Shown here piece after piece: positions 3,849 through 34,994 of a stretch of 64,000 bases of DNA. Positions within the stretch are counted from its first letter, which is position 1. The number at the start of each line of letters is the position of its first letter. Both the position numbers and the translations under genes were made by a program. Under the pieces are notes generated by a model. That model was not told the DNA's origin. It made no database searches and saw only the letters and a list, made by a program, of their open reading frames with translations. Origin of the DNA: Escherichia coli (GTDB taxonomy: Bacteria; Pseudomonadota; Gammaproteobacteria; Enterobacterales; Enterobacteriaceae); assembly GCF_041886205.1 (NCBI RefSeq), contig NZ_CP169029.1; one strand, 5' to 3'.

Positions 3849-4876
3849 TATGCGGCCTCCCGTTTTTTACCTGACGAAGCGGGTTTAACGGATGGCGGTG
3901 GCGTCATAAAGCGGGCATATTTTTGCCGCCGCAGATTACGTTCCAGCGCACAACGCAGGCGTCCATCAAACACCAGCACCGCTAGCAGCACGAGGCCCGC
4001 GATAAAATCGTTCCACCATGCCGGAATGCGCAACAGCACCAGTACGCTATCGATCTGCGTCAGGAACCATGCGCCGAGTACCGCACCGATGATCGCACCG
4101 GAACCGCCGAGCAAACTAATGCCGCCCAGCACGCAGGCTGCAATTGCTTTCATCTCCAGCCCGGTACCGGTCTGGTTGGGGATAAAACCAATCTGCGAAG
4201 CAAACACAATCCCCGCCAGTGCCGCCATGCAGCCGTTCAACGAAAATGCCACAATGCGAATGGCTTCCGTACGAACGCCCAGTTGACGAGCTCCCTGTAA
4301 ATTATCGCCCGTGGCATAAAAACTGCGTCCAAACGCCGTCTTTGCCAGCAGCCAGGCCATAAATGCCACCAGAATTATCGTTAACTAACCAATTGCTGAA
4401 ACGCCAAGCAGCAGCGGGGCGGAGAGCTGTTTCAGTTCGGCGGGTAACCCCTCAATCCATTTACCGCCAGTCCACAGCAACATGATGCCTCTGTACAACC
4501 CTAACGAGCCAAGGGTGGCAACAATGGCAGGGATCTTTAGCCACGCGACCAGGACACCGTTGAAAAATCCCGCGAGCAAACCAAGCAGTAAAGTCGCGAC
4601 ACAGGCAACAGGTAGTGAATATCCTGCGTTCAGTAACATCCCCAACAGCACCGCGCACATTCCGGTAATCGAACCCACTGAAACATCAATATTGCGCGTA
4701 AGCATTACCAGCGTCGCGCCCATTGCCAGCAGGATCAGGATTTGCGCGCTGCTATAAACCATGGTCAGCGTTTGCACACTTAAATACTGGCGGTCGAGAA
4801 AACCGGGTAATACAAACAGCAGCACCACCGCCAGCAGTGCCGTGATTTCACGGTTGTTCTGAATAAACTTCAGCAT
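3848..4876 (-). pseudogene. lsrC: lsrC, AI-2 ABC transporter permease interrupted by an in-frame TAG stop at codon 164 (complement of 4385-4387)
   Basis: Two same-frame ORFs (4385..4876 and 3848..4369) separated only by one stop codon; total span 1029 nt = 342 codons + stop, the length of an intact LsrC; sequence around the stop reads [19 protein letters not shown] where a Trp codon (TGG) is expected. Confidence 0.8.
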
Positions 4877-9798: not shown

Positions 9799-12700
9799 AT
9801 GAATAGAATCTATCGCGTGATATGGAATTGCACCCTACAGGTATTTCAGGTCTGCTCGGAATTAACTCGCAGGGTAGGTAAAAAATCGACGGTTAATTTG
9901 CGTAAATCCTCTGGACTGACAACGAAATTCAGTAGATTGACGCTGGGTGTTTTGCTGGCACTAAGCGGTTCAGCGTCTGGTGCGAGTCTGGAAGTTGATA
10001 ATGATCAGATTACCAATATTGATACTGATGTTGCTTATGATGCCTACCTGGTTGGCTGGTATGGCACTGGAGTGCTTAATATTTTGGCTGGCGGTAATGC
10101 CTCCTTAACCACGATTACTACCAGCGTCATTGGTGGTAATGAGAACTCGAAGGGCACCGTTAATGTTTTGGGTGGCACCTGGCGATTGTATGATAGCGGA
10201 AATAATGCAAGGCCTTTAAATGTGGGTCAATCCGGAACGGGGACGCTGAATATTAAACAGAAAGGTCACGTTGATGGAGGATATTTAAGGCTAGGTTCCT
10301 CGACAGGAGGCGTCGGGACGGTCAATGTTGAGGGAGAGGACTCTGTTCTGACGACCGAATTATTCGAAATAGGGAGCTATGGCACAGGCTCATTAAATAT
10401 TACAGATAAGGGTTACGTCACGAGTTCAATAGTCGCCATTTTAGGCTATCAGGCGGGCGGTAATGGCCAGGTTGTCGTGGAAAAGGGCGGCGAGTGGCTA
10501 ATAAAAAATAACGATTCCTCAATTGAATTTCAAATTGGTAATCAAGGAACGGGGGAAGCGACTATTCGCGGGGGTGGGCTGATTACGGCTGAAAACACGA
10601 TTATCGGTGGCAATGCCACCGGTATCGGAACCCTGAATGTGCAGGATCAAGACTCTGTCATCACGGTACGCAGACTCTATAATGGATATTTCGGCAATGG
10701 CACAGTCAATATTTCCAATAATGGACTGATTAATAACAAAGAATATTCATTGGTGGGCGTTCAGGACGGTTCCCACGGTGTCATCAACGTGACCGATAAA
10801 GGGCATTGGAATTTCCTCGGAACAGGCGAAGCTTTCCGCTATATCTATATCGGTGATGCTGGCGACGGTGAACTTAATGTCTCGAGTGAAGGCAAAGTAG
10901 ATTCGGGAATTATCACTGCGGGGATGAAAGAAACAGGCACAGGCAACATTACTGTTAAGGATAAGAACTCCGTTATCACTAATCTCGGAACTAATCTTGG
11001 TTATGACGGCCACGGCGAAATGAATATCAGTAATGAGGGGCTTGTTGTCAGCAACGGAGGAAGTTCACTCGGTTATGGAGAAACCGGCGTCGGGAATGTC
11101 AGCATCACCACGGGGGGGATGTGGGAGGTCAATAAGAATGTCTATACCACCATTGGTGTTGCGGGTGTCGGAAACCTCAATATTAGCGATGGCGGTAAGT
11201 TTGTATCGCAAAATATTACTTTTTTGGGCGATAAAGCAAGCGGTATCGGCACACTGAACCTGATGGATGCGACATCATCGTTCGATACTGTGGGTATCAA
11301 TGTCGGTAATTTTGGTAGCGGTATCGTAAATGTCAGTAATGGTGCCACCCTTAATTCAACGGGCTATGGATTTATCGGAGGAAATGCCTCCGGTAAGGGG
11401 ATAGTTAATATTTCAACGGATAGTCTCTGGAATTTAAAGACATCATCTACTAACGCCCAATTGCTACAGGTCGGTGTATTAGGCACGGGTAAACTGAATA
11501 TTACCACCGGAGGTATAGTTAAAGCGCGTGATACACAGATAGCTCTCAATGACAAAAGTAAGGGCGACGTGAGGGTGGATGGGCAGAACTCTCTGCTTGA
11601 AACATTCAATATGAACGTAGGGACGACTGGCACGGGTACGTTAACCCTGACGAATAACGGCACGCTGAATGTTGAGGGTGGCGAAGTTTACTTAGGTGTT
11701 TTTGAACCTGCTGTAGGAACGCTAAACATTGGTGCTGCTCACGGTGAGGCGGCGGCAGATGCCGGGTTTATCACCAACGCGACGAAAGTAGAGTTTGGTT
11801 CTGGCGAAGGTGTTTTTGTCTTTAATCATACCAATAACAGTGATACCGGCTACCAGGTCGATATGCTGATTACGGGTGACGATAAAGACGGAAAAGTGAT
11901 ACATGATGCAGGCCATACGGTGTTCAATGCAGGGAATACTTATAGCGGTAAAACGCTGGTCAATGACGGCCTCCTGACCATTGCGTCACATACGGCAGAT
12001 GGGGTAACGGGCATGGGTTCGAGTGAAGTAACCATTGCAAGCCCCGGTACGCTCGACATTCTCGCATCAACGAACAGTGCAGGAGATTACACGCTGACCA
12101 ATGCGCTCAAAGGCGATGGCTTGATGCGAGTTCAGCTGTCATCCTCCGACAAGATGTTTGGCTTTACCCATGCAACAGGGGCTGAATTCGCCGGTGTTGC
12201 CCAACTGAAAGACAGTACCTTCACTCTGGAACGCGACAACACCGCTGCGCTTACTCACGCGATGTTGCAGTCTGACATTGAAAATACCACATCGGTAAAC
12301 GTGGGAGAGCAATCCATTGGTGGACTGGCCATGAATGGCGGTACGCTCATTTTCGATACGGATATTCCTGCTGCGACGCTTGCAGAGGGATATATCAGCG
12401 TCGATACGCTGGTTGTCGGCGCGGGTGACTACACCTGGAAAGGCCGTAACTATCAGGTAAACGGGACGGGCGACGTGCTTATCGACGTGCCTAAACCGTG
12501 GAATGATCCCATGGCGAATAACCCTCTGACGACGCTCAATTTGCTGGAACACGATGATAGCCATGTCGGCGTTCAACTGGTGAAGGCGCAAACGGTTATT
12601 GGGTCGGGTGGTTCATTAACGTTACGTGATTTACAGGGCAACGAGGTGGAAGCGGACAAAACGTTACATATTGCGCAAAACGGAACGGTGGTCGCCGAGG

Positions 12701-25219: not shown

Positions 25220-26345
25220 AAAGTTGATTATCGAGGCCAAAATTCTCACCGAACCAGAGGCTGAAGTCGAGCGGGTGATGCATGTGTGTAACGCATGTCG
25301 CTATTGCGAAGGATTTTGCGCCGTGTTCCCGGCAATGACTCAACGACTGGAATTTGGCAAAGCCGACATTAACTATCTGGCAAATCTGTGCCATAACTGC
25401 GGCGCTTGCCTACACGCCTGCCAGTATGCTCCCCCCCATGAGTTTGGGATCAACGTGCCGAAAGCAATGGCAGAGGTACGTCTGGAAACTTATCAACAGT
25501 ACGCGCAACCGGCGGTCTTCGGGGCGCTGTATCGCCGGGCTGGCGTCACCGTGACGCTGGCACTGGTCTTAAGTATGTTCCTCTTTTTACTCCTGGCGAT
25601 GGGGCTGAAGGGATCGCTGCTCCACCCACCGCTGGCCGGTGATTTCTACCAAATCTTCCCGCACAACCTGCTGGCCTGGATGTTTGGATCGGTATTCATT
25701 CTGGCTATTGGTTTACTGATGGTAGGGGTGATCCGCTTCTGGCGCGAGATTTCTCCCGTCGGGCCGCGCCCAGCGGAAATTGCCGAAGCGTCGAGCAACG
25801 CGCTAACGCTAAAATATCTTGACGGCGGACATGGCAAAGGGTGCAACGAAGCGGACGATGCTTTCACATTGATGCGTCGTCGTTTCCACCATTTCACCTT
25901 CTACGGCTTTATGCTCTGTTTCGCCGCGACCATGGTGGCGACGGGTTACCACTACTTTGCTAGTTGGGAAGCCCCCTACCCATTCTTCAGTGTGCCGGTC
26001 ATGCTTGGCACGTTAGGAGGAGTCGGTTTAATCGTAGGCCCGGCAGGCCTGCTGTGGTTAAACCTTAAGCGCTCGCCACTGCATGGCGATGCGCGACAGA
26101 AACCGATGGATCGGGGATTTATTTTACTACTGCTCCTGACTAGCCTCACCGGTTTAGGTTTGCTGGTGGGAAGAGATACCTCATGGATGGGGATCCTGCT
26201 TGCCATCCATCTTGGCGTGGTCATGGCGCTTTTTTTAACAATTCCGTACGGAAAATTTGCCCACGGATTTTACCGCTGCGCGTCTTTACTCAAATGGGCG
26301 ATCGAGAAGCGACGTGGAAAACAGGCGGGGGTCGCAAGCGACTGA
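25206..26345 (+). CDS. tcuB: TcuB-like membrane Fe-S protein (379 aa)
   Basis: Cys clusters [11 protein letters not shown] and [11 protein letters not shown] followed by multiple TM segments; start overlaps the tcuA stop (ORF-track start trimmed to MKQLEK). Confidence 0.75.
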
Positions 26346-26399
26346 CCCGCACACTCTTACCTCTATACATAATTATGATAAGGCAATGGAGCAACCTCA

Positions 26400-27695
26400 A
26401 TGACTCAACAACCATCGCGTACCGGCACGTTCGGCGCAATACTCCGTGTTACCAGCGGTAATTTCCTCGAACAGTTCGATTTTTTCCTGTTTGGTTTTTA
26501 CGCTACTTATATCGCAAAGACGTTTTTTCCTGCCGAAAGTGAGTTTGCCGCATTAATGCTTACTTTTGCCGTTTTTGGCTCCGGCTTTTTAATGCGCCCT
26601 ATCGGGGCCGTGGTATTGGGTGCATATATCGACAGAATTGGGCGACGGAAAGGGCTGATGGTTACCCTGGCGATTATGGGCTGCGGCACGATGCTCATCG
26701 CCCTCGTTCCGGGTTATCAGACTATCGGCCTGCTGGCCCCTGTACTGGTCCTGGTGGGGCGTCTGCTACAGGGATTTTCTGCTGGAGTCGAACTGGGCGG
26801 CGTCTCTGTTTATCTTTCTGAGATCGCCACACCAGGCAATAAAGGCTTTTATACCAGTTGGCAATCGGCCAGCCAGCAGGTGGCGATTGTGGTCGCCGCG
26901 CTGATCGGGTACGGTCTGAATGCCACGCTGGGACACGATGAAATCTCCGAATGGGGTTGGCGAATACCGTTCTTCATTGGCTGCATGATTATTCCGCTGA
27001 TTTTTGTTCTGCGACGTTCGCTTCAGGAAACTGAAACCTTTTTACAGCGTAAACACCGTCCGGACACCCGGGAAATTTTTACCACCATTGCTAAAAACTG
27101 GCGTATTATCACTGCGGGAACCCTGCTGGTGGCGATGACGACCACGACATTTTATTTTATTACTGTCTATACCCCCACTTACGGGAGAACGGTGTTGAAC
27201 CTGAGCGCACGTGATAGTCTGATCGTCACTATGCTGGTAGGGATTTCTAACTTTATATGGCTGCCGATTGGCGGCGCGATCTCTGACCGGATTGGGCGTC
27301 TCCCGGTGCTAATGGGCATCACCTTACTCGCCATCGTCACCACCTGGCCGGTGATGCACTGGCTTACCGCTGCACCTGACGTCACCCGCATGACACTGGT
27401 GCTGCTCTGGTTCTCGTTCTTTTTTGGGATGTATAACGGTGCAATGGTAGCAGCCCTGACAGAAGTGATGCCGGTTTATGTCCGAACCGTGGGTTTTTCG
27501 CTGGCCTTTAGTCTCGCCACGGCGATTTTCGGCGGCCTGACACCAGCCATCTCCACTGCATTGGTCCAGTTGACAGGCGATAAAAGTTCTCCTGGATGGT
27601 GGCTAATGTGCGCTGCGCTGTGCGGGCTCGCCGCGACGACAATACTGTTTGCTCGTCTCAGTAGTGGTTATCAGACAGTAAAAAATAAGCTCTGA
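26400..27695 (+). CDS. tcuC: TcuC-like MFS transporter (citrate/tricarballylate-proton symporter family), 431 aa
   Basis: 12-TM MFS protein with a metabolite-proton symporter signature; last gene of the cluster. Confidence 0.8.
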
Positions 27696-27701
27696 AACGC
27701 A

Positions 27702-27735
27702 AGCAGGCAGAGATATATGTCTGCCTGCTTTCTCC
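27702..27735 (+). terminator. Rho-independent terminator after tcuC
   Basis: AGCAGGCAGA ... TCTGCCTGCT perfect 10-bp stem, 8-nt loop, then TTTCTCC. Confidence 0.6.
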
Positions 27736-27992
27736 AGTGCGCCGTAAACCGTGGGCAGCGTGGCACGGGAGTTACGTCACCGGGCTCTATGCCAACAGTT
27801 CAGTGAGTTCGCCGGCGCATCGATGGCTGGTTATGCCAGCAATGTTCAGAGGGAAGAATAATCGTGTGATCATAGCTCGCTTATTCCTTGCCTGGGTTAA
27901 ATTTTCAGACGGCTCAATCCATAAAACCGGTGACTGGGATTAACGTAAGTACGCCCTCTTTCCATCAACACTTCAGGCAGCTTGCGGGAATG

Positions 27993-28175
27993 AGTCCACT
28001 CCGGTATCAGAAATGACTATGCCTCAGAAGACAGGCGACTAACGATGTCACCACAGCAGCCTATACTGTCGGTTACGAAAGCTTATCCCATTTCAGTCGG
28101 GAATATTCGCGGATGTTTGGAGAGTCACCTAAGAGAGATATTGCCAGGTTAAGAAAGTCTGTCTATCAGCTTTAA
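27993..28175 (+). pseudogene. yneL: AraC-family regulator C-terminal fragment (second HTH only), yneL-like remnant
   Basis: Open frame reads ...[45 protein letters not shown], the characteristic end of an AraC/XylS HTH; no in-frame N-terminal domain upstream. Confidence 0.5.
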
Positions 28176-28608
28176 TAAACCCTGCATTTATCTGGTTAGA
28201 GCAATTTGGCGTTAGTTTCAGCAAGCAAACATTAACCATAGCTAATGATTTTTAGCTATATAAACCATTAGTAACTCTTGACCTTTCCTGACACTTCCCT
28301 TGTTCGCAATAATATTCTGTTTAGTCGCTGTTTATAAATAACATGCATAATGAAATCGTCATGTTATTTAGCGACATAAAATGTCTTTGCAAATACTCTC
28401 TTCAATAAGTGCAGCAATAAACTTGTTGTGGATAGGTGTCCTTGTGATTTAAAGATATTATCGTTCTTCGTGAAATGTAATAACCCTGGAAACTATATTC
28501 TCAGGGCAACAGCCAATCAAGAATGATTCTTGTTTTATAAGCAATAACAGAATGACTTAATTGTTAACTCTCTTTATTCAGCTACTTAAATGTAAATTTT
28601 GGAGAATT

Positions 28609-28749
28609 ATGAAACTCAAACATGTCGGTATGATTGTCGTTTCTGTGTTGGCGATGTCGTCTGCTGCGGTAAGTGCAGCCGAGGGTGATGAATCAGTAAC
28701 GACCACTGTTAATGGCGGTGTTATTCATTTTAAAGGTGAAGTGGTAAAT
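28609..28749 (+). pseudogene. FimA-like fimbrial major subunit, N-terminal 47 codons only (signal peptide plus start of the pilin domain)
   Basis: [47 protein letters not shown] closely matches the FimA N-terminus ([16 protein letters not shown]); reading frame is interrupted by IS3 at 28750. Confidence 0.65.
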
Positions 28750-28779
28750 TGATCCTACCCACGTAATATGGACACAGGC

Positions 28780-29646
28780 CTAAGCGAGGTTCTTGTTTTC
28801 AAATTGTTCCGGACTGAGGCCGCCACACCAACTGTGCCGCCGCCACCGATTGTAATCACATTCGATATAATTAAACACCGTTGCCCGCATTATTTCCCGG
28901 CTGATAAAGTGTTCTCCATGGATACATTCCACTTTCAGCGAATGAAAGAAGCTTTCCACGCAGGCATTATCGTAGCAGCAACCTTTTGCGCTCATACTTC
29001 CACGCAGATTATGCCGCTTCAGTTGCGCCTGATAATCTGCTGAACAGTACTGGCCTCCACGGTCCGTGTGAACGATAACGTTCCGGGGCCTCTTACGCCG
29101 CCACAGCGCCATCTGCAGGGCATCGCAGGCCAGTTGCGCCGTCATGCGTGGCGACATTGACCAGCCAATAACGGCACGTGACCACAGGTCAATGACCACT
29201 GCCAGATACAGCCAGCCTTCATCTGTACGTAAGTACGTGATGTCTCCTGCCCACTTCTGGTTCGGGCCACTGGCGTAAAAATCCTGCTCCAACAGATTTT
29301 CTGACACAGGCAGGCCGTTTGCGCGGTAGCTGACCGGGCTGAACTTCCGGGAGGCCTTTGCCCTCAGTCCCTGACGGCGCAGGCTTGCCGCCACGGTTTT
29401 TACGTTAAAGGGGTAACCCTGAGCACGCAGTTCATCCGTCAGGCGTGGGGCACCGTAACGCTGTTTTGACCGGGTAAAAGCCGCGAGGACAACGCTGTCG
29501 CAGTGTTGGCGGAACTGCTGACGCGTGCTTATCCTTGTCCGCCGCTGACACCACGTATACCAGCCGCTGCGGGCCACCCGGAGCACGCGGCACATTGCTT
29601 TGATGCTGAACTCAGCCTGATGTTTTTCAATAAAGACATACTTCAT
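28780..29646 (-). CDS. insF: IS3 OrfB transposase (DDE integrase domain), 288 aa
   Basis: Translation [32 protein letters not shown]...; DDE catalytic domain; overlaps orfA in the -1 frame. Confidence 0.85.
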
Positions 29647-29942
29647 TTCAGGCGCTTCGCGAAGTATGTCGCGGCCTTTTGGAGGATAGCCAGCTCTTCA
29701 TCCCGTTCTGCCAGCTGGCGTTTGAGACGTGCAATCTCGGTAGACATCTCCAGTTCACGTTCAGAAGACGTCTGCTGATTTTGCTGTTTACTGCGCCAGT
29801 TGTAGAGCTGTGATTCATACAGGCTGAGTTCACGGGCTGCGGCAGTAACACCGATGCGTTCAGCAAGCTTCAGGGCTTCACTGCGAAATTCAGGCGAATG
29901 CTGTTTACGGGGTTTTTTACTGGTTGATACTGTTTTTGTCAT
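29643..29942 (-). CDS. insE: IS3 OrfA (HTH and leucine zipper), 99 aa
   Basis: Translation [53 protein letters not shown]...; ORF-track start trimmed to MTKTV. Confidence 0.85.
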
Positions 29943-30007
29943 GTGAGTCACCTCTGACTGAGAGTTTACTCACTTAGCCGCGTGTCCACTATTGCTGGGT
30001 AAGATCA

Positions 30008-30343
30008 AATGTTGAACTGGATGAAACCGTGGTCACTGTCATCCCAACTCACGGTGCTATTGCCAGAGCAACATTTAATGCACAAATCGGCGGGAAAGTA
30101 TTAATGACGTTGAAGTACGGTAATAAGAGCGTTCCATTCGGTGCAATTGTCACACACGGAGAGAATAAAAATGGCAGCATTGTCGCGGAAAACGGTCAGG
30201 TTTATCTGACTGGACTTCCACAGTCAGGGAAATTACAGGTTTCATGGGGTAAAGATAAAAACTCAAACTGTATTGTCGAGTACAAGCTTCCTGAAGTTTC
30301 TCCTGGTACCTTACTGAACCAGCAGACAGCAATCTGTCGCTAA
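30008..30343 (+). pseudogene. ydeT: Fimbrial usher C-terminal fragment (ydeT-type remnant)
   Basis: ...FGAIVTHGENKNGSIVAENGQVYLTGLPQSGKLQVSWGKDKNSNCIVEYKLPEVSPGTLLNQQTAICR matches the C-terminal domain of FimD-type ushers; in frame with the FimA-like fragment once IS3 and one AAT copy are removed. Confidence 0.7.
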
Positions 30344-30356
30344 GGAACAATAGATT

Positions 30357-30887
30357 ATGAAATACAATAACATTATTTTCCTCGGTTTATGTCTGGGGTT
30401 AACCACCTATTCTGCTTTATCCGCAGATAGCGTTATTAAAATTAGCGGGCGCGTCCTCGATTATGGCTGCACAGTCTCATCGGATTCGCTTAATTTTACC
30501 GTAGATCTCCAAAAAAACAGTGCCAGACAATTCCCAACGACCGGTAGCACAAGTCCAGCCGTCCCTTTTCAGATTACGTTAAGTGAATGCAGCAAAGGGA
30601 CAACGGGGGTTCGGGTTGCATTTAACGGTATTGAGGATGCAGAAAATAATACTCTGTTGAAACTGGATGAGGGAAGCAATACGGCCTCCGGTTTGGGTAT
30701 AGAAATACTGGACGGAAATATGCGTCCGGTGAAACTGAATGACCTTCATGCCGGGATGCAGTGGATCCCACTGGTACCAGAACAGAACAATATTTTGCCT
30801 TACTCCGCTCGTCTGAAGTCAACTCAGAAGTCCGTCAATCCGGGACTGGTGAGGGCTTCGGCAACCTTTACCCTTGAATTTCAATAA
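30357..30887 (+). CDS. ydeS: Fimbrial minor subunit (F9-like operon), 176 aa
   Basis: Signal peptide, pilin-like fold with a conserved Cys pair; position after the usher remnant. Confidence 0.8.
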   Translation: MKYNNIIFLGLCLGLTTYSALSADSVIKISGRVLDYGCTVSSDSLNFTVDLQKNSARQFPTTGSTSPAVPFQITLSECSKGTTGVRVAFNGIEDAENNTLLKLDEGSNTASGLGIEILDGNMRPVKLNDLHAGMQWIPLVPEQNNILPYSARLKSTQKSVNPGLVRASATFTLEFQ

Positions 30888-30899
30888 TCAGAGTCAGAT

Positions 30900-31403
30900 A
30901 TGAAAAGACTTCACAAGAGGTTCCTGTTAGCTACGTTTTGCTCGTTATTCACAGCAACTCTCCAGGCCGCCGATGTCACTATCACTGTTAATGGTCGGGT
31001 AGTCGCTAAACCCTGCACTATTCAAACCAAAGAAGCTAACGTTAATCTCGGGGATCTTTATACGCGCAATCTGCAACAACCTGGTTCTGCATCTGGCTGG
31101 CACAATATTACTTTGTCATTAACCGATTGTCCGGTTGAAACAAGTGCAGTGACGGCAATCGTGACAGGTTCAACTGACAATACGGGTTATTACAAAAATG
31201 AAGGTACTGCCGAAAATATTCAGATAGAGCTGAGGGATGACCAGGATGCTGCGTTAAAAAATGGCGATAGCAAAACGGTTATTGTTGATGAGATCACTCG
31301 TAATGCACAGTTTCCACTTAAGGCAAGAGCTATCACGGTGAATGGAAACGCAAGCCAGGGAACGATCGAGGCGCTAATCAATGTGATCTACACCTGGCAA
31401 TAA
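30900..31403 (+). CDS. ydeR: Fimbrial minor subunit (F9-like operon), 167 aa
   Basis: Signal peptide [23 protein letters not shown], pilin-like; operon context. Confidence 0.8.
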
Positions 31404-31461
31404 CGTCGATTCGATTTTCTTAGCCTTCTTTTTAAATCAATTTTTAACCTTAGGATATATC

Positions 31462-32376
31462 ATGGGTAAAACAATCAGTATAAAGGTCCTGTTCGGTATT
31501 TATCTTCTATTAATGGCAGGCAAAGTTTTTGCCTTCAGTTGTAATGTCGATGGCGGGTCAAGTATTGGAGCAGGTACAACCTCTGTTTATGTTAATCTCG
31601 ACCCTGTAATACAGCCGGGCCAGAATCTGGTTGTAGACTTGTCTCAGCATATAAGTTGCTGGAATGATTACGGCGGCTGGTACGACACTGATCATATAAA
31701 CCTGGTACAAGGCTCAGCTTTCGCAGGCTCCCTACAGTCATATAAAGGATCGCTGTACTGGAATAATGTGACCTACCCCTTCCCGTTGACGACAAATACC
31801 AACGTATTGGATATTGGTGATAAGACACCGATGCCATTACCGTTAAAACTCTATATTACCCCAGTTGGGGCGGCCGGTGGAGTTGTCATAAAAGCGGGGG
31901 AAGTCATTGCCCGTATTCATATGTATAAAATTGCCACGTTAGGAAGCGGAAATCCGCGTAATTTTACGTGGAATATTATTTCAAATAACAGTATTGTTAT
32001 GCCAACAGGCGGCTGCACCGTTGATAGTCGTAATGTCACTGTGGATCTCCCGGACTTTCCTGGAAGCGCAGAAATACCCCTTGGCGTATATTGCTCAAGC
32101 GAACAAAAGCTCTCATTTTATCTTTCGGGTGCCACCACTGACAGTAGCCGACAAGTGTTTGCTAACACAGCACCTGATGCAACAAAAGCATCGGGAGTGG
32201 GTGTCTCTCTGATGCGTAATGGAAAAATACTGGCTACGGGAGAAAATGTCTCCCTGGGGACAGTAAATAAAAGCAAAGTACCTCTGGGTTTAAGCGCAAC
32301 CTATGGACAAACAGGAAACAAGGTTGCAGCCGGAACCGTCCAGTCGGTCATTGGTGTCACTTTTATCTATGAATAA
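31462..32376 (+). CDS. ydeQ: FimH-like two-domain fimbrial tip adhesin (F9-like operon), 304 aa
   Basis: Signal peptide, FimH-like lectin plus pilin domain length and composition; last gene of the operon. Confidence 0.8.
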
Positions 32377-32448
32377 TTGTGATTTTGATCTTAGTCTATG
32401 CGCTCCATTCACGAAAATTGCGCGGATAATTATTTTGTGAAGGCTATT

Positions 32449-32466
32449 ATCCTACACCTGTAAGAA
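32449..32466 (+). promoter_or_regulatory. EvgA box upstream of ydeP (TCCTACA-CC-TGTAAGA)
   Basis: Sequence ATCCTACACCTGTAAGAA matches the EvgA inverted-repeat consensus TTCYTACA..TGTARGAA; ydeP is a known direct EvgA target. Confidence 0.55.
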
Positions 32467-32714
32467 AATCCGCGCACAATTGAAGCCAGAGTCTTATTTT
32501 TTATATTGAAAAATATGTTAATTTAAACACTATGAGAGATGATGCTTAACTTATAGTATTTATACTAATCTATTATTTAACGATAATAGGTTAAAAATAG
32601 ATAGAGAGTAGTCCCCTACTCTTATATATCCATGTTGACGATAATCCCTTTGTATATACTGTGCATCATCGCTATTTCAAATCCTAATAATTCATTTCCA
32701 CACAGGATAAGTAG

Positions 32715-34994
32715 ATGAAGAAAAAAATTGAATCCTACCAGGGTGCTGCCGGTGGTTGGGGTGCTGTTAAATCCGTAGCGAATGCAGTACGTAAGCAGAT
32801 GGATATACGCCAGGATGTTATTGCCATGTTTGACATGAATAAGCCAGAGGGCTTTGACTGTCCGGGTTGTGCATGGCCAGATCCTAAGCACAGTGCGTCA
32901 TTCGACATTTGTGAAAACGGCGCAAAAGCAATCGCCTGGGAAGTCACGGATAAGCAGGTAAATGCCTCTTTCTTTGCTGAGAATACGGTTCAATCATTAC
33001 TTACCTGGGGAGATCACGAGCTTGAGGCTGCGGGACGTCTCACTCAGCCTTTGAAATATGATGCTGTCAGCGACTGTTACAAGCCATTAAGCTGGCAACA
33101 AGCTTTCGACGAAATTGGCGCACGCCTTCAAAGCTATAGTGATCCCAATCAGGTTGAATTCTATACTTCGGGCCGCACTTCCAATGAAGCTGCCTTTCTT
33201 TATCAGCTTTTTGCCCGTGAATACGGGAGCAATAACTTTCCCGACTGCTCCAACATGTGCCATGAACCGACCAGTGTGGGTTTGGCAGCGAGTATCGGTG
33301 TGGGTAAAGGGACTGTGTTGCTGGAAGACTTTGAGAAGTGCGATTTAGTCATTTGCATTGGGCATAACCCTGGTACAAACCACCCCCGCATGCTGACTTC
33401 GTTGCGCGCTTTAGTGAAACGGGGAGCGAAAATGATCGCCATAAACCCTCTACAGGAACGTGGTCTGGAGCGATTTACCGCACCGCAAAACCCGTTTGAA
33501 ATGCTGACGAACTCTGAGACTCAGTTGGCCAGTGCCTACTACAACGTGCGCATTGGTGGCGATATGGCGTTGCTCAAGGGGATGATGCGCCTGTTAATTG
33601 AGCGCGATGATGCTGCAAGCGCCGCAGGTCGGCCCTCATTGCTTGATGACGAATTTATTCAAACACATACCGTCGGCTTTGACGAGCTACGCCGTGACGT
33701 TCTCAATTCCGAGTGGAAAGATATCGAACGTATTTCTGGACTAAGTCAGACTCAAATCGCCGAACTGGCTGACGCATATGCCGCTGCCGAACGCACCATT
33801 ATCTGTTACGGAATGGGGATCACTCAGCACGAACATGGTACCCAGAACGTACAGCAACTGGTCAATTTGCTGTTGATGAAAGGTAACATTGGCAAGCCTG
33901 GTGCGGGTATCTGCCCACTACGTGGTCACTCTAATGTACAGGGCGACCGAACCGTCGGTATCACCGAGAAACCGTCTGCAGAGTTTCTGGCTCGCCTGGG
34001 TGAGCGCTATGGCTTCACCCCACCTCATGCACCTGGACATGCTGCAATTGCCAGCATGCAAGCAATATGTACAGGGCAGGCTCGAGCATTGATCTGCATG
34101 GGGGGCAACTTTGCACTGGCAATGCCAGATCGGGAAGCGAGCGCTGTACCGTTAACGCAATTAGATCTGGCGGTACACGTTGCCACTAAGCTTAACCGCT
34201 CTCATCTGCTGACCGCACGGCATAGCTATATTCTGCCGGTTCTGGGACGTAGCGAGATTGACATGCAAAAAAGCGGTGCGCAGGCGGTAACCGTTGAGGA
34301 TTCAATGTCGATGATTCATGCCTCGCGTGGCGTGTTAAAACCCGCCGGTGTAATGCTGAAATCAGAGTGTGCAGTGGTCGCGGGAATCGCGCAGGCAGCA
34401 CTACCCCAGAGCGTGGTAGCCTGGGAGTATCTGGTGGAAGATTATGATCGCATTCGCAATGACATTGAAGCTGTGCTGCCAGAGTTCGCCGACTATAACC
34501 AGCGCATCCGTCATCCCGGTGGTTTTCACCTGATAAATGCAGCTGCTGAAAGGCGCTGGATGACGCCGTCAGGTAAGGCTAATTTCATTACCAGCAAAGG
34601 GCTGTTAGAAGATCCCTCTTCAGCGTTTAACAGTAAGCTGGTCATGGCGACAGTACGCAGTCACGATCAGTACAACACGACGATTTATGGTATGGATGAT
34701 CGCTATCGAGGGGTATTCGGTCAACGAGATGTGGTCTTTATGAGTGCTAAACAAGCTAAAATTTGCCGTGTAAAAAACGGCGAAAGAGTTAATCTTATTG
34801 CGCTTACGCCAGACGGTAAGCGCAGCTCACGCCGCATGGATAGATTAAAAGTGGTCATTTACCCTATGGCTGACCGCTCACTGGTGACCTATTTTCCAGA
34901 ATCGAATCACATGCTAACTCTTGATAACCACGATCCATTAAGTGGCATTCCTGGTTATAAAAGTATTCCGGTTGAATTAGAACCATCAAATTAA
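32715..34994 (+). CDS. ydeP: YdeP, molybdopterin oxidoreductase-family acid-resistance protein (759 aa)
   Basis: Full-length ORF; molybdopterin oxidoreductase (formate-dehydrogenase-like) domains; position before safA-ydeO. Confidence 0.9.

Follow-up and report, generated by a model that had tools for sequence, protein, structure and literature searches.

A probable IS3-associated deletion, in place of a simple insertion, at the F9 (yde/fml) fimbrial operon of an Escherichia coli lineage

When an insertion sequence lies between the beginning of one gene and the end of another, with the same three bases on either side of it, the question arises as to whether it entered a gene fusion that already existed or took part in making it. 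IS3, which belongs to the IS3 group of the IS3 family, moves by a copy-out-paste-in route and duplicates 3 bp of its target. A copy of it flanked by AAT on both sides is found in the window, by which is meant the whole stretch of 64,000 nucleotides of Escherichia coli DNA that was analysed (contig NZ_CP169029.1), where it separates the start of a fimbrial major subunit gene from the end of an usher gene. A preliminary description of this DNA proposed an older in-frame deletion which fused the two genes, followed by a simple insertion of IS3 that duplicated the AAT of the junction. From the comparisons given below that order of events is disfavoured, and it is considered probable that the deletion was IS3-associated, in other words that IS3 either caused or accompanied the loss of the intervening genes.

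The surroundings of the element are those of the F9 operon. Its published organisation is one of major subunit, chaperone, usher, ydeS, ydeR and ydeQ genes, placed between the hipBA side and ydeP (PMC3966885), and both the position and the gene order recur in the window, where hipA (ending at 17030) is followed further along by yneL', fimA', IS3, 'usher, ydeS, ydeR, ydeQ and ydeP (32715-34994). The first of these remnants is a yneL-like pseudogene of an AraC/HTH regulator upstream of the operon (27939-28175, plus strand; as annotated by RefSeq in wlxctx60, where the region is identical), which also precedes fimA in EC71, GF4-3 and a K-12-like strain. The fragment fimA' (28609-28749, plus strand), which is supported by the open reading frame list, by RefSeq and by collinearity with GF4-3, holds codons 1-47 of the gene for the F9 major subunit; it terminates in ...HFKGEVVN, with Asn47 (AAT) as its last codon, and its TGA stop codon is formed by the first three bases of IS3. 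On the other side of the element, 'usher (30008-30343, plus strand) comprises the C-terminal 111 codons (773-883) and the stop codon of the F9 usher, a ydeT homologue. It carries a PapC_C domain (PF13953 on a 104-aa open reading frame), is labelled by RefSeq as 'FimD/PapC C-terminal domain-containing protein, missing N-terminus' and is collinear with the GF4-3 usher from GF4-3 position 15202. Thereafter come, all on the plus strand, the FimF-like minor subunit gene ydeS (30357-30887), the FimG-like minor subunit gene ydeR (30900-31403) and the gene of the FimH-like tip adhesin, ydeQ (31462-32376; PF09160, FimH_man-bind). The lengths of these three genes equal those in intact operons, and the view that the locus is an F9 remnant with ydeS, ydeR and ydeQ intact and yet orphaned is borne out; the window does not hold the complete assembly machinery of major subunit, chaperone and usher. 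The wlxctx60 region is 100% identical to the window over 28300-30500, and its annotation was transferred by adding 20299 to the L004 coordinate. A search of positions 26000-33000 against Rfam gave no match.

The element itself is a complete IS3 of exactly 1,258 bp (28750-30007), with its transposase on the minus strand, such that IRR adjoins fimA' and IRL adjoins the usher fragment; AAT stands at 28747-28749 and again at 30008-30010, as had been described. Its length and its imperfect terminal inverted repeats, which start with TGATC (TGATCCTACCCACG... and TGATCTTACCCAGC...), are those of IS3, and the same boundaries are seen in nine other copies. The two reading frames, orfA (29643-29942, minus strand, 99 aa; from the gene calls in the identical loci L013 and L016 and the open reading frame list) and orfB (28780-29646, minus strand, 288 aa, with a DDE/rve domain), overlap at 29643-29646 (open reading frames of 99-102 and 288 aa) and, going by the RefSeq annotation, are predicted to be joined by a programmed -1 frameshift. 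The product has an HTH and a DDE part, with Pfam matches to HTH_Tnp_1, HTH_21, rve, rve_2 and rve_3, and in wlxctx60 the identical element is annotated by RefSeq as intact, under the name 'IS3-like element IS3 family transposase, programmed frameshift'. In size, terminal inverted repeats, orfA/orfB frameshift layout and DDE (rve) transposase there is thus no structural difference from IS3 of Escherichia coli. At the level of single bases, the window copy differs from each of seven other annotated IS3 copies at one or two positions in 1,258 bp, and the T at its position 570 is shared, among nine copies compared, with that of strain MB53 only.

Where, then, do the two AATs come from? In the intact operons of GF4-3, EC71 and 13P460A the left AAT is found as codon 47 of fimA (...GTGGTA AAT gccgct), and the right AAT as codon 773 of the usher (...gcagat AAT GTTGAA, the sequence after the triplet being GTTGAACTGG). 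Both triplets are therefore native to the operon, each on its own side, and neither need be a duplicate. The distance between them is 3,854 bp; the sites are spaced by 5,115 bp in EC71, which includes an IS3 of its own, and the true distance there is 3,854 bp also. GF4-3 is a relative with the same tcu island and a complete F9 operon. The left flank of the window is 99.8% identical to it over 10.1 kb, collinear through the AAT and up to GF4-3 position 11350, and the right flank follows at ca 97.7% identity from position 15202, with IS3 between the two, exactly at the deletion junction. Gone relative to GF4-3 are fimA codons 48-187, the whole chaperone gene and usher codons 1-772. The difference between the two identities was considered as the mark of a recombination break at IS3, but the breakpoint can be placed no more closely than somewhere inside the missing 3.85 kb. 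In short, the AATs do not derive from a single target site of the intact operon, an outcome which the preliminary description had itself held to speak for IS-mediated deletion. The comparison with intact operons does leave room for a single target in a hypothetical, already deleted ancestor.

That the arrangement should be an assembly artefact, or a chance one in which no real deletion took place, is so improbable that it may be set aside. IS elements are repeats and as such can be misassembled, but the structure recurs unchanged in four independent complete genomes (among 5,426) and in further assemblies, some with contigs of more than 1 Mb, and on either side collinearity with intact operons extends to the very ends of the element.

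Removal of IS3 and one AAT joins the FimA fragment to the usher fragment in a continuous frame of 157 aa, ...GEVVN-VELDETVVTVIPTHG...AICR followed by a stop, made up of the 47-codon FimA start and the last 110 usher codons. This was correctly noted before, and the question is what weight it can carry. If the deletion was IS3-associated, the preserved frame would be a one-in-three accident and the identity of the two flanks a coincidence of ca 3%. AAT is the commonest triplet of the operon (124 of 4,326 positions, 2.9%), such that two native flanks match as AAT by chance at about that frequency. It counts against an IS3-associated deletion that AAT on both sides is precisely what a simple insertion predicts, and that this coincidence has to be accepted here. 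In this regard, six other IS3 insertions with the same ends have true 3-bp duplications (TAC, AGG, TGT, AAT, TTT and AGT), and the window is like them in having a perfect 3-bp direct repeat. Moreover, the same 4 bp, AATG, are present at fimA codon 47 and at usher codon 773, so that a spontaneous microhomology deletion giving an IS-free in-frame FimA-usher fusion, followed by an exact strike of IS3 on the junction AAT, would yield the same sequence. It counts against the preferred reading, too, that such a deletion, with one AAT left behind, is plausible as a mechanism and that IS-free deletions of the operon exist, namely those of the K-12 type, E10, L024 and L027, with a junction overlap of 0-11 bp. 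Other FimA-usher fusion proteins also occur in E. coli, and IS3 has hit the operon repeatedly (EC71, 13P460A and isolate 648, and in EC931 between fimA and the chaperone gene).

What makes an older fusion with a later insertion unlikely, all this notwithstanding, is that IS3 would have had to land on precisely those 3 bp at which the junction lies, ca 1 position in a remnant of 2-4 kb, and no sequence pattern that might have guided it there has been found at IS3 insertion sites (PMC10379815). An IS-driven deletion, in contrast, leaves the element at the junction automatically, so that only the triplet coincidence is needed. Furthermore, the predicted empty site, free of IS3 and with one AAT (GTGGTAAATGTTGAACTGG), occurs in none of 5,426 complete E. 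coli genomes, an exact look-up of the 157-aa fusion protein among ca 15 billion proteins gave no match, and a metagenome scan did not recover the IS-free in-frame fusion either. A search for homologues of the 157-aa fusion gave none with full cover, the best high-identity matches covering 71-73%. Among the collections searched the relatives thus show no empty site, whereas the 47-aa peptide encoded by the allele with IS3 is found on 282 contigs (530 index blocks).

The sole IS-free junction that was found is that of L028 and L034, GTGGTAAATTGAACTGG, and it is not an ancestral one. These two sequences equal the window minus 1,263 bp, lost between one TTGA (28749-28752) and another (30012-30015), the two copies of a 4-bp repeat; in other words, the loss took IS3 and 5 bp with it and left a premature stop, the scar having the junction sequence GTGGTAAATTGAACTGGATG. 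Their junction is without the native usher bases GT, which the IS3 allele retains, and they belong, with a single mismatch over 4.3 kb, to the clade that bears IS3. Necessarily, therefore, they are derived from the IS3 allele, and provide no ancestor for an insertion into an older fusion.

A second variant, MB53, indicates what this IS3 copy is able to do. It has the same copy, recognised by the 570T which is not in seven other copies, and the same right junction, in which IS3 is directly followed by AATGTTGAA, with 3 mismatches to the window in the first 4 kb of the right flank. The left flank of its IS3, however, is CAT, within a gene of an integrase island, such that CAT on the left faces AAT on the right and there is no duplication. 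One IS copy hence anchors more than one deletion end: with the same copy and right junction and another left flank, this IS3 took part in a flanking deletion in which the usher junction was the fixed anchor. MB53 can be derived from a window-type allele under an older fusion with later insertion as well, and so carries no decisive weight for the origin of the window's left junction. A fall in identity of MB53 at its IS1 was considered, and binned mismatches put the break ca 4 kb to the right, inside ydeP; nor is this IS1 shared with ET201, the positions in ydeQ being different. 1008S13 was rejected as a source of the MB53 left junction, its IS3 being at another site, between CGC and AAC, and its island unrelated.

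The other IS3 copies in this region fall in with the distinction between insertion and rearrangement. Simple insertions in or near the operon have true duplications (TAC, AGG and TGT), while at rearranged sites, as in MB53 and 1008S13, the two flanks differ. The IS3 copies of EC71 and 13P460A were candidates for sharing the window's left junction, but each is a simple insertion of its own with its own duplication, the first lying downstream of fimA and the second at approximately fimA codon 66. Apparent similarity of flanks at further IS3 copies, which could have meant a target consensus or an intermediate with IS3 in the usher, was traced to unrelated insertions, in hcp (duplication AAT), in a restriction S subunit gene (TTT), on plasmid pO104_H21 (no duplication) and in the yraJ usher gene (AGT); the likeness is one of chance, raised by ranking among ca 26,000 IS3 places.

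For the IS3-associated deletion we infer the following order of events and routes. An IS3 copy would have entered an intact F9 operon, most economically at usher codon Asn773 since the junction there is common to the second strain, MB53. The 3,854 bp between this copy and fimA codon 47 would then have been lost in an IS3-driven step, either as an adjacent deletion by intramolecular transposition or by homologous recombination with a second IS3 of the same orientation inserted in fimA, and in both cases one IS3 would be left exactly at the deletion junction. Intermediates on these routes would have chimeric junctions. An IS3 in usher codon 773 with the upstream operon intact would be seen as ...CTGGCAGATAAT joined to TGATCCTACCC... 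(also ...CCCTGGCAGATAAT joined to TGATCCTACCCACGTAA), and an IS3 at fimA codon 47 followed by the remaining fimA as ...GGTAAGATCA joined to AATGCCGCTTGTGC... (also ...TGGGTAAGATCA joined to AATGCCGCTTGTGC). Chimeric-junction probing of the 5,426 complete genomes gave no genome with IS3 at codon 773 of an otherwise intact usher and none in which an IS3 at fimA codon 47 is succeeded by the remainder of that gene. That no intermediate was found counts against the preferred reading.

The same observation, with the position of IS3 exactly at the junction and the native flanks, is in keeping with deletion and arrival in a single step, in which IS3 was captured at the DNA break that caused the deletion. 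This mechanism has been put forward for certain IS elements that lie in the middle of a deletion without target duplication, but the same work, on the long-term evolution experiment, recorded a deletion and no target duplication for 14 of 83 IS movements, all of IS150 (an IS3-family element), and was able to trace every one of these to an earlier insertion and a subsequent adjacent deletion (PMC11708052). Nothing at the present locus separates one step from two and the AAT coincidence is needed all the same; a single step is accordingly regarded as very unlikely. For an IS3-associated deletion, the IS150 cases are close parallels. As in the window, a deletion of several kb ends exactly at an IS3-family element whose two flanks are native sequences from sites far apart; according to the published route, insertion came first and deletion second. 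They differ from the window in that its native flanks are the same triplet and mimic a target duplication, and in that it belongs to a natural lineage in which the steps were not watched in time. For IS3 itself, the transposase has been shown to make deletions beside the element (PMC8860574).

The degenerate F9 operon of K-12 (ydeT, ydeS, ydeR, ydeQ; phylogroup A) provides a further comparison (PMC3966885). It is the same operon in the same chromosomal place, with ydeS, ydeR and ydeQ kept and the major subunit, the chaperone and the N-terminus of the usher gone. However, in the K-12 type the deletion begins 179 bp before the start of fimA and ends in mid-usher, giving a ydeT of 1,227 bp with no IS at the junction, whereas the window retains codons 1-47 of fimA and no more than 111 codons of the usher, with IS3 between them. 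The two deletions are independent, with other end points, and the expectation that K-12-type ydeT would lack IS3 was correct.

Taken together with L028 and L034, the locus may hold, in natural isolates, all stages of the IS3 insertion-deletion-excision series which has so far been shown only on an engineered plasmid. The series predicted by that model (PMC8860574) matches an intact operon in GF4-3, IS3 on an adjacent 3.85-kb deletion in the window (in 4 complete genomes, with its product on 282 contigs) and an operon without IS3 in L028 and L034, the last stage being a near-precise excision between the 4-bp TTGA repeats that would leave an IS-free fimA'-'usher scar. This is put forward tentatively, as a possibility held with rather less than even confidence. 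The model differs from what is found here in that no new functional operon arises, the result being a pseudogene junction.

F9 fimbriae cannot be assembled in this lineage, which has lost the greater part of the major subunit, the chaperone in its entirety and 772 of the 883 usher codons, and the locus is most likely a case of ordinary gene decay driven by a mobile element. Its biological importance is small, given that disruption of F9 is already known, affecting ca 40% of E. coli genomes and every phylogroup A strain that was examined (PMC3966885), as are the deletions which IS3-family elements make in their flanks. The lesson is rather one of method, in that simple insertion is not proved by a perfect 3-bp direct repeat on the two sides of an IS; here both copies are native, which shows only against an intact relative. 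A comparable loss is that of the rbs operon in the long-term evolution experiment, which Cooper and co-workers, in 2001, reportedly saw removed by recombination with a newly inserted IS150. Beyond this, the natural series of intact operon, IS3 with deletion and excised IS3 is usable for the study of how an IS remodels a locus and then disappears. If the insertion-deletion-excision reading is true, IS-free gene fusions in bacterial genomes could be the scars of vanished IS elements and not spontaneous deletions.

The IS3 of the window lies within the F9 (yde/fml) fimbrial operon itself, which sits where the literature places it, with the hipBA side on one flank and ydeP on the other (PMC3966885). 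As the preliminary description had stated, the element is complete (1,258 bp, 28750-30007; transposase genes on the minus strand, orfB at 28780-29646 and orfA at 29643-29942) and has an AAT on each side, one ending at 28749 and the other at 30008-30010. It differs from seven other IS3 copies at 1-2 positions. RefSeq lists its counterpart in strain wlxctx60 (100% identity to the window over 28300-30500) as intact IS3, programmed frameshift included. To its left is fimA' (28609-28749), the surviving 5' end of the F9 major subunit gene: 47 codons up to Asn47 (AAT), closed by a TGA stop that the opening three bases of IS3 supply. Beyond the right AAT come the final 110 usher codons of F9, ending at 30343, and then ydeS, ydeR and ydeQ, all intact, and ydeP. 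The in-frame relationship of the two fragments also stands, in that removal of IS3 and one AAT leaves an uninterrupted reading frame of 157 aa.

The same description took the AATs to be a duplication of one target site, made when IS3 inserted into an older fimA-usher deletion. This origin is disfavoured by the intact operons of EC71, 13P460A and GF4-3, in all of which the fimA site reads ...GTGGTA AAT gccgct and the usher site ...gcagat AAT GTTGAACTGG. The left AAT corresponds there to codon 47 of fimA and the right one to codon 773 (of 883) of the usher, with 3,854 bp between them. GF4-3 is a relative with the same tcu island beside the operon and matches the window at 99.8% identity across 10.1 kb of left flank; its collinearity with the window runs through the first AAT inclusive on the left side and resumes at the second AAT on the right. 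On this comparison, neither AAT would need a copy made by transposition to explain it. AAT is moreover the commonest single triplet of the operon (124 of 4,326 positions, 2.9%), and a published survey of IS3 insertion sites detected no sequence pattern (PMC10379815). The probably false target duplication is a mildly interesting caution for annotation.

If the fusion preceded IS3, some relatives should carry GTGGTAAATGTTGAACTGG, the in-frame fusion free of the IS. A 940-bp empty-site probe found no such fusion among 5,426 complete E. coli genomes, its one match at ≥80% coverage being strain E10, which carries a different IS-free fimA-usher deletion. The exact 157-aa protein is absent from ~15 billion proteins, its high-identity homologues reaching at most 73% coverage, and a metagenome scan permitting 0-2 bases between the junction halves found no perfect empty site. 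These searches speak against an older fusion. The IS3 allele is itself well represented: its exact structure is common to four complete genomes, and its 47-aa FimA' product occurs on 282 contigs and in 530 index blocks, all the long contexts read showing tcu island, then IS3, then usher fragment. The allele is found with two downstream haplotypes (L014, L015, L016 and L030 versus the window, from ~30008 rightwards), which differ by ~37 mismatches across 4.3 kb that start at the usher fragment and reach into ydeP, from either post-deletion recombination or allele transfer between lineages.

The sole IS-free junction found in the lineage, GTGGTAAATTGAACTGG, is in two metagenome contigs, L028 (ENA; 3976-3990) and L034 (4693-4723), which are 100% identical over 4.3 kb, possibly derive from the same sample and may not be independent. 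Here L028 is the window sequence less 1,263 bp (IS3 plus 5 bp, AATGT), the missing segment being bounded by 4-bp TTGA repeats (28749-28752 and 30012-30015); the scar in both contigs is frameshifted, with the 47-aa FimA' still encoded. Since the native usher bases GT are kept in the IS3 allele and missing from L028, the latter cannot be its ancestor. L028 falls within the IS3-bearing clade, with 1 mismatch to the window in 4.3 kb, a stretch across which the window type and the VE-T9/CP52E type differ by ~37, and is best read as a later, near-precise IS3 loss. The resulting series in natural isolates (intact, IS-plus-deletion, IS-excised) fits an insertion-deletion-excision model, which is mildly interesting.

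Strain MB53 carries the same IS3 copy, recognisable by T at position 570 of the element, which is shared with the window and found in 0 of 7 other copies. Its right junction, IS3 followed directly by AATGTTGAA, is that of the window (3 mismatches across the 4 kb of right flank nearest the element), and its left flank is CAT, within a truncated gene belonging to an integrase island that adjoins hipA, with no duplication; this hipA-proximal site holds a related island in wlxctx60 and is vacant in the window. This IS3 copy has therefore been party to at least one flanking deletion in which the usher junction stayed fixed. Simple IS3 insertions in or around the operon have genuine duplications (TAC in EC71, AGG in 13P460A, TGT in isolate 648), as do insertions elsewhere (AAT, TTT, AGT), whereas copies at rearranged sites have none (CAT and AAT in MB53, CGC and AAC in 1008S13).

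The choice between histories rests on likelihood and side evidence; among the 5,426 complete genomes, a chimeric probe found neither IS3 at codon 773 of an otherwise intact usher nor IS3 at fimA codon 47 with the remainder of fimA after it. A spontaneous deletion followed by IS3 insertion has a plausible first step, because IS-free deletions are common in the F9 operon (K-12 type, E10, L024, L027 and several other FimA-usher fusion proteins) and AATG is common to both sites. Its weak point is the second step, in which an element with no known target preference must hit the exact 3-bp junction, about 1 position in a 2-4 kb remnant, and with the empty site not found we consider this order unlikely. 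A deletion driven by IS3, through intramolecular transposition or through recombination involving another, transient copy of IS3, would place the element at the junction by construction, the sole coincidence required being a 2.9% triplet match, and is probably what happened. In the long-term evolution experiment, deletion accompanied 14 of 83 IS movements, all of IS150 (IS3 family) and all traceable to insertion and then adjacent deletion (PMC11708052), and deletions adjoining the element have been shown for the IS3 transposase (PMC8860574). Rates from these loci and the literature further favour IS3-driven deletion, for which a rough estimate of the odds is tens to one; the junction shared with MB53 slightly favours a first insertion in the usher rather than fimA. 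A one-step variant by break capture appears very improbable.

To the left, 17125-17135 is the vacant form of an integration hotspot directly downstream of hipA, where wlxctx60 has a 15.4-kb island (two integrases, retron Ec78 ptuA/ptuB, an ABC-three-component system) and MB53 a different one, ~76% identical in the integrase region; at the junction the alignments have 11 bp in common, possibly an attachment-site repeat. The MFS/cellulase genes and an autotransporter beta-barrel gene (17233-18915, minus strand) have a short IS3-family transposase remnant between them (approximately 18625-18879), which the annotations of wlxctx60, GF4-3 and ET201 give as a pseudogene fragment. Between hipBA and the operon, 21676-27695 holds a LacI-type regulator and tcuR-tcuA-tcuB-tcuC (tricarballylate utilisation); tcuC, elsewhere in E. 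coli mostly plasmid-borne (~93-94% identity), is intact in the window and frameshifted in the otherwise near-identical wlxctx60.

In unrelated strains the operon has been struck repeatedly by IS elements. IS3 lies after fimA in EC71, at fimA ~codon 66 in 13P460A and at the ydeR 3' end before ydeQ in isolate 648 (loci L001, L002 and L005), each with its own target duplication, and between fimA and the chaperone in EC931 (hit H73); isolate 648 also has IS2 within fimA. IS1 erodes the operon within the same clade, as a simple insertion in ydeQ in MB53 (L003 11245-12013; window 31985-31992) and, at a different site, flanking a yneL-to-ydeQ deletion in ET201 (L022 10686-11454; window 31959) from which the IS3 site is gone entirely. 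Loci L024 (~3886-3896) and L027 (~3885) carry two distinct IS-free chaperone-usher deletions with different left end points and an essentially shared right end point, at a GAATTC that precedes the AAT site by ~95 bp (GF4-3 usher 15107/15108); nested deletion from an anchor since lost, or a local break hotspot, could account for them.

In this lineage fimA codons 48-187, the entire chaperone and usher codons 1-772 are gone, which bears out the earlier statement that ydeS, ydeR and ydeQ persist without chaperone-usher machinery. F9 fimbriae cannot be assembled, and these three genes are left intact and orphaned, with the IS3 transposase genes on the strand opposite to them. The K-12 ydeT remnant has, as anticipated, no IS3 at this place, and its deletion is independent, IS-free and of other end points. 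Reported disruption of F9 extends to 40% of genomes and to every phylogroup A strain examined, and H-NS represses the operon (PMC3966885). Flanking deletions by IS3-family elements are already well documented, and the finding is a familiar type of ordinary genome decay.
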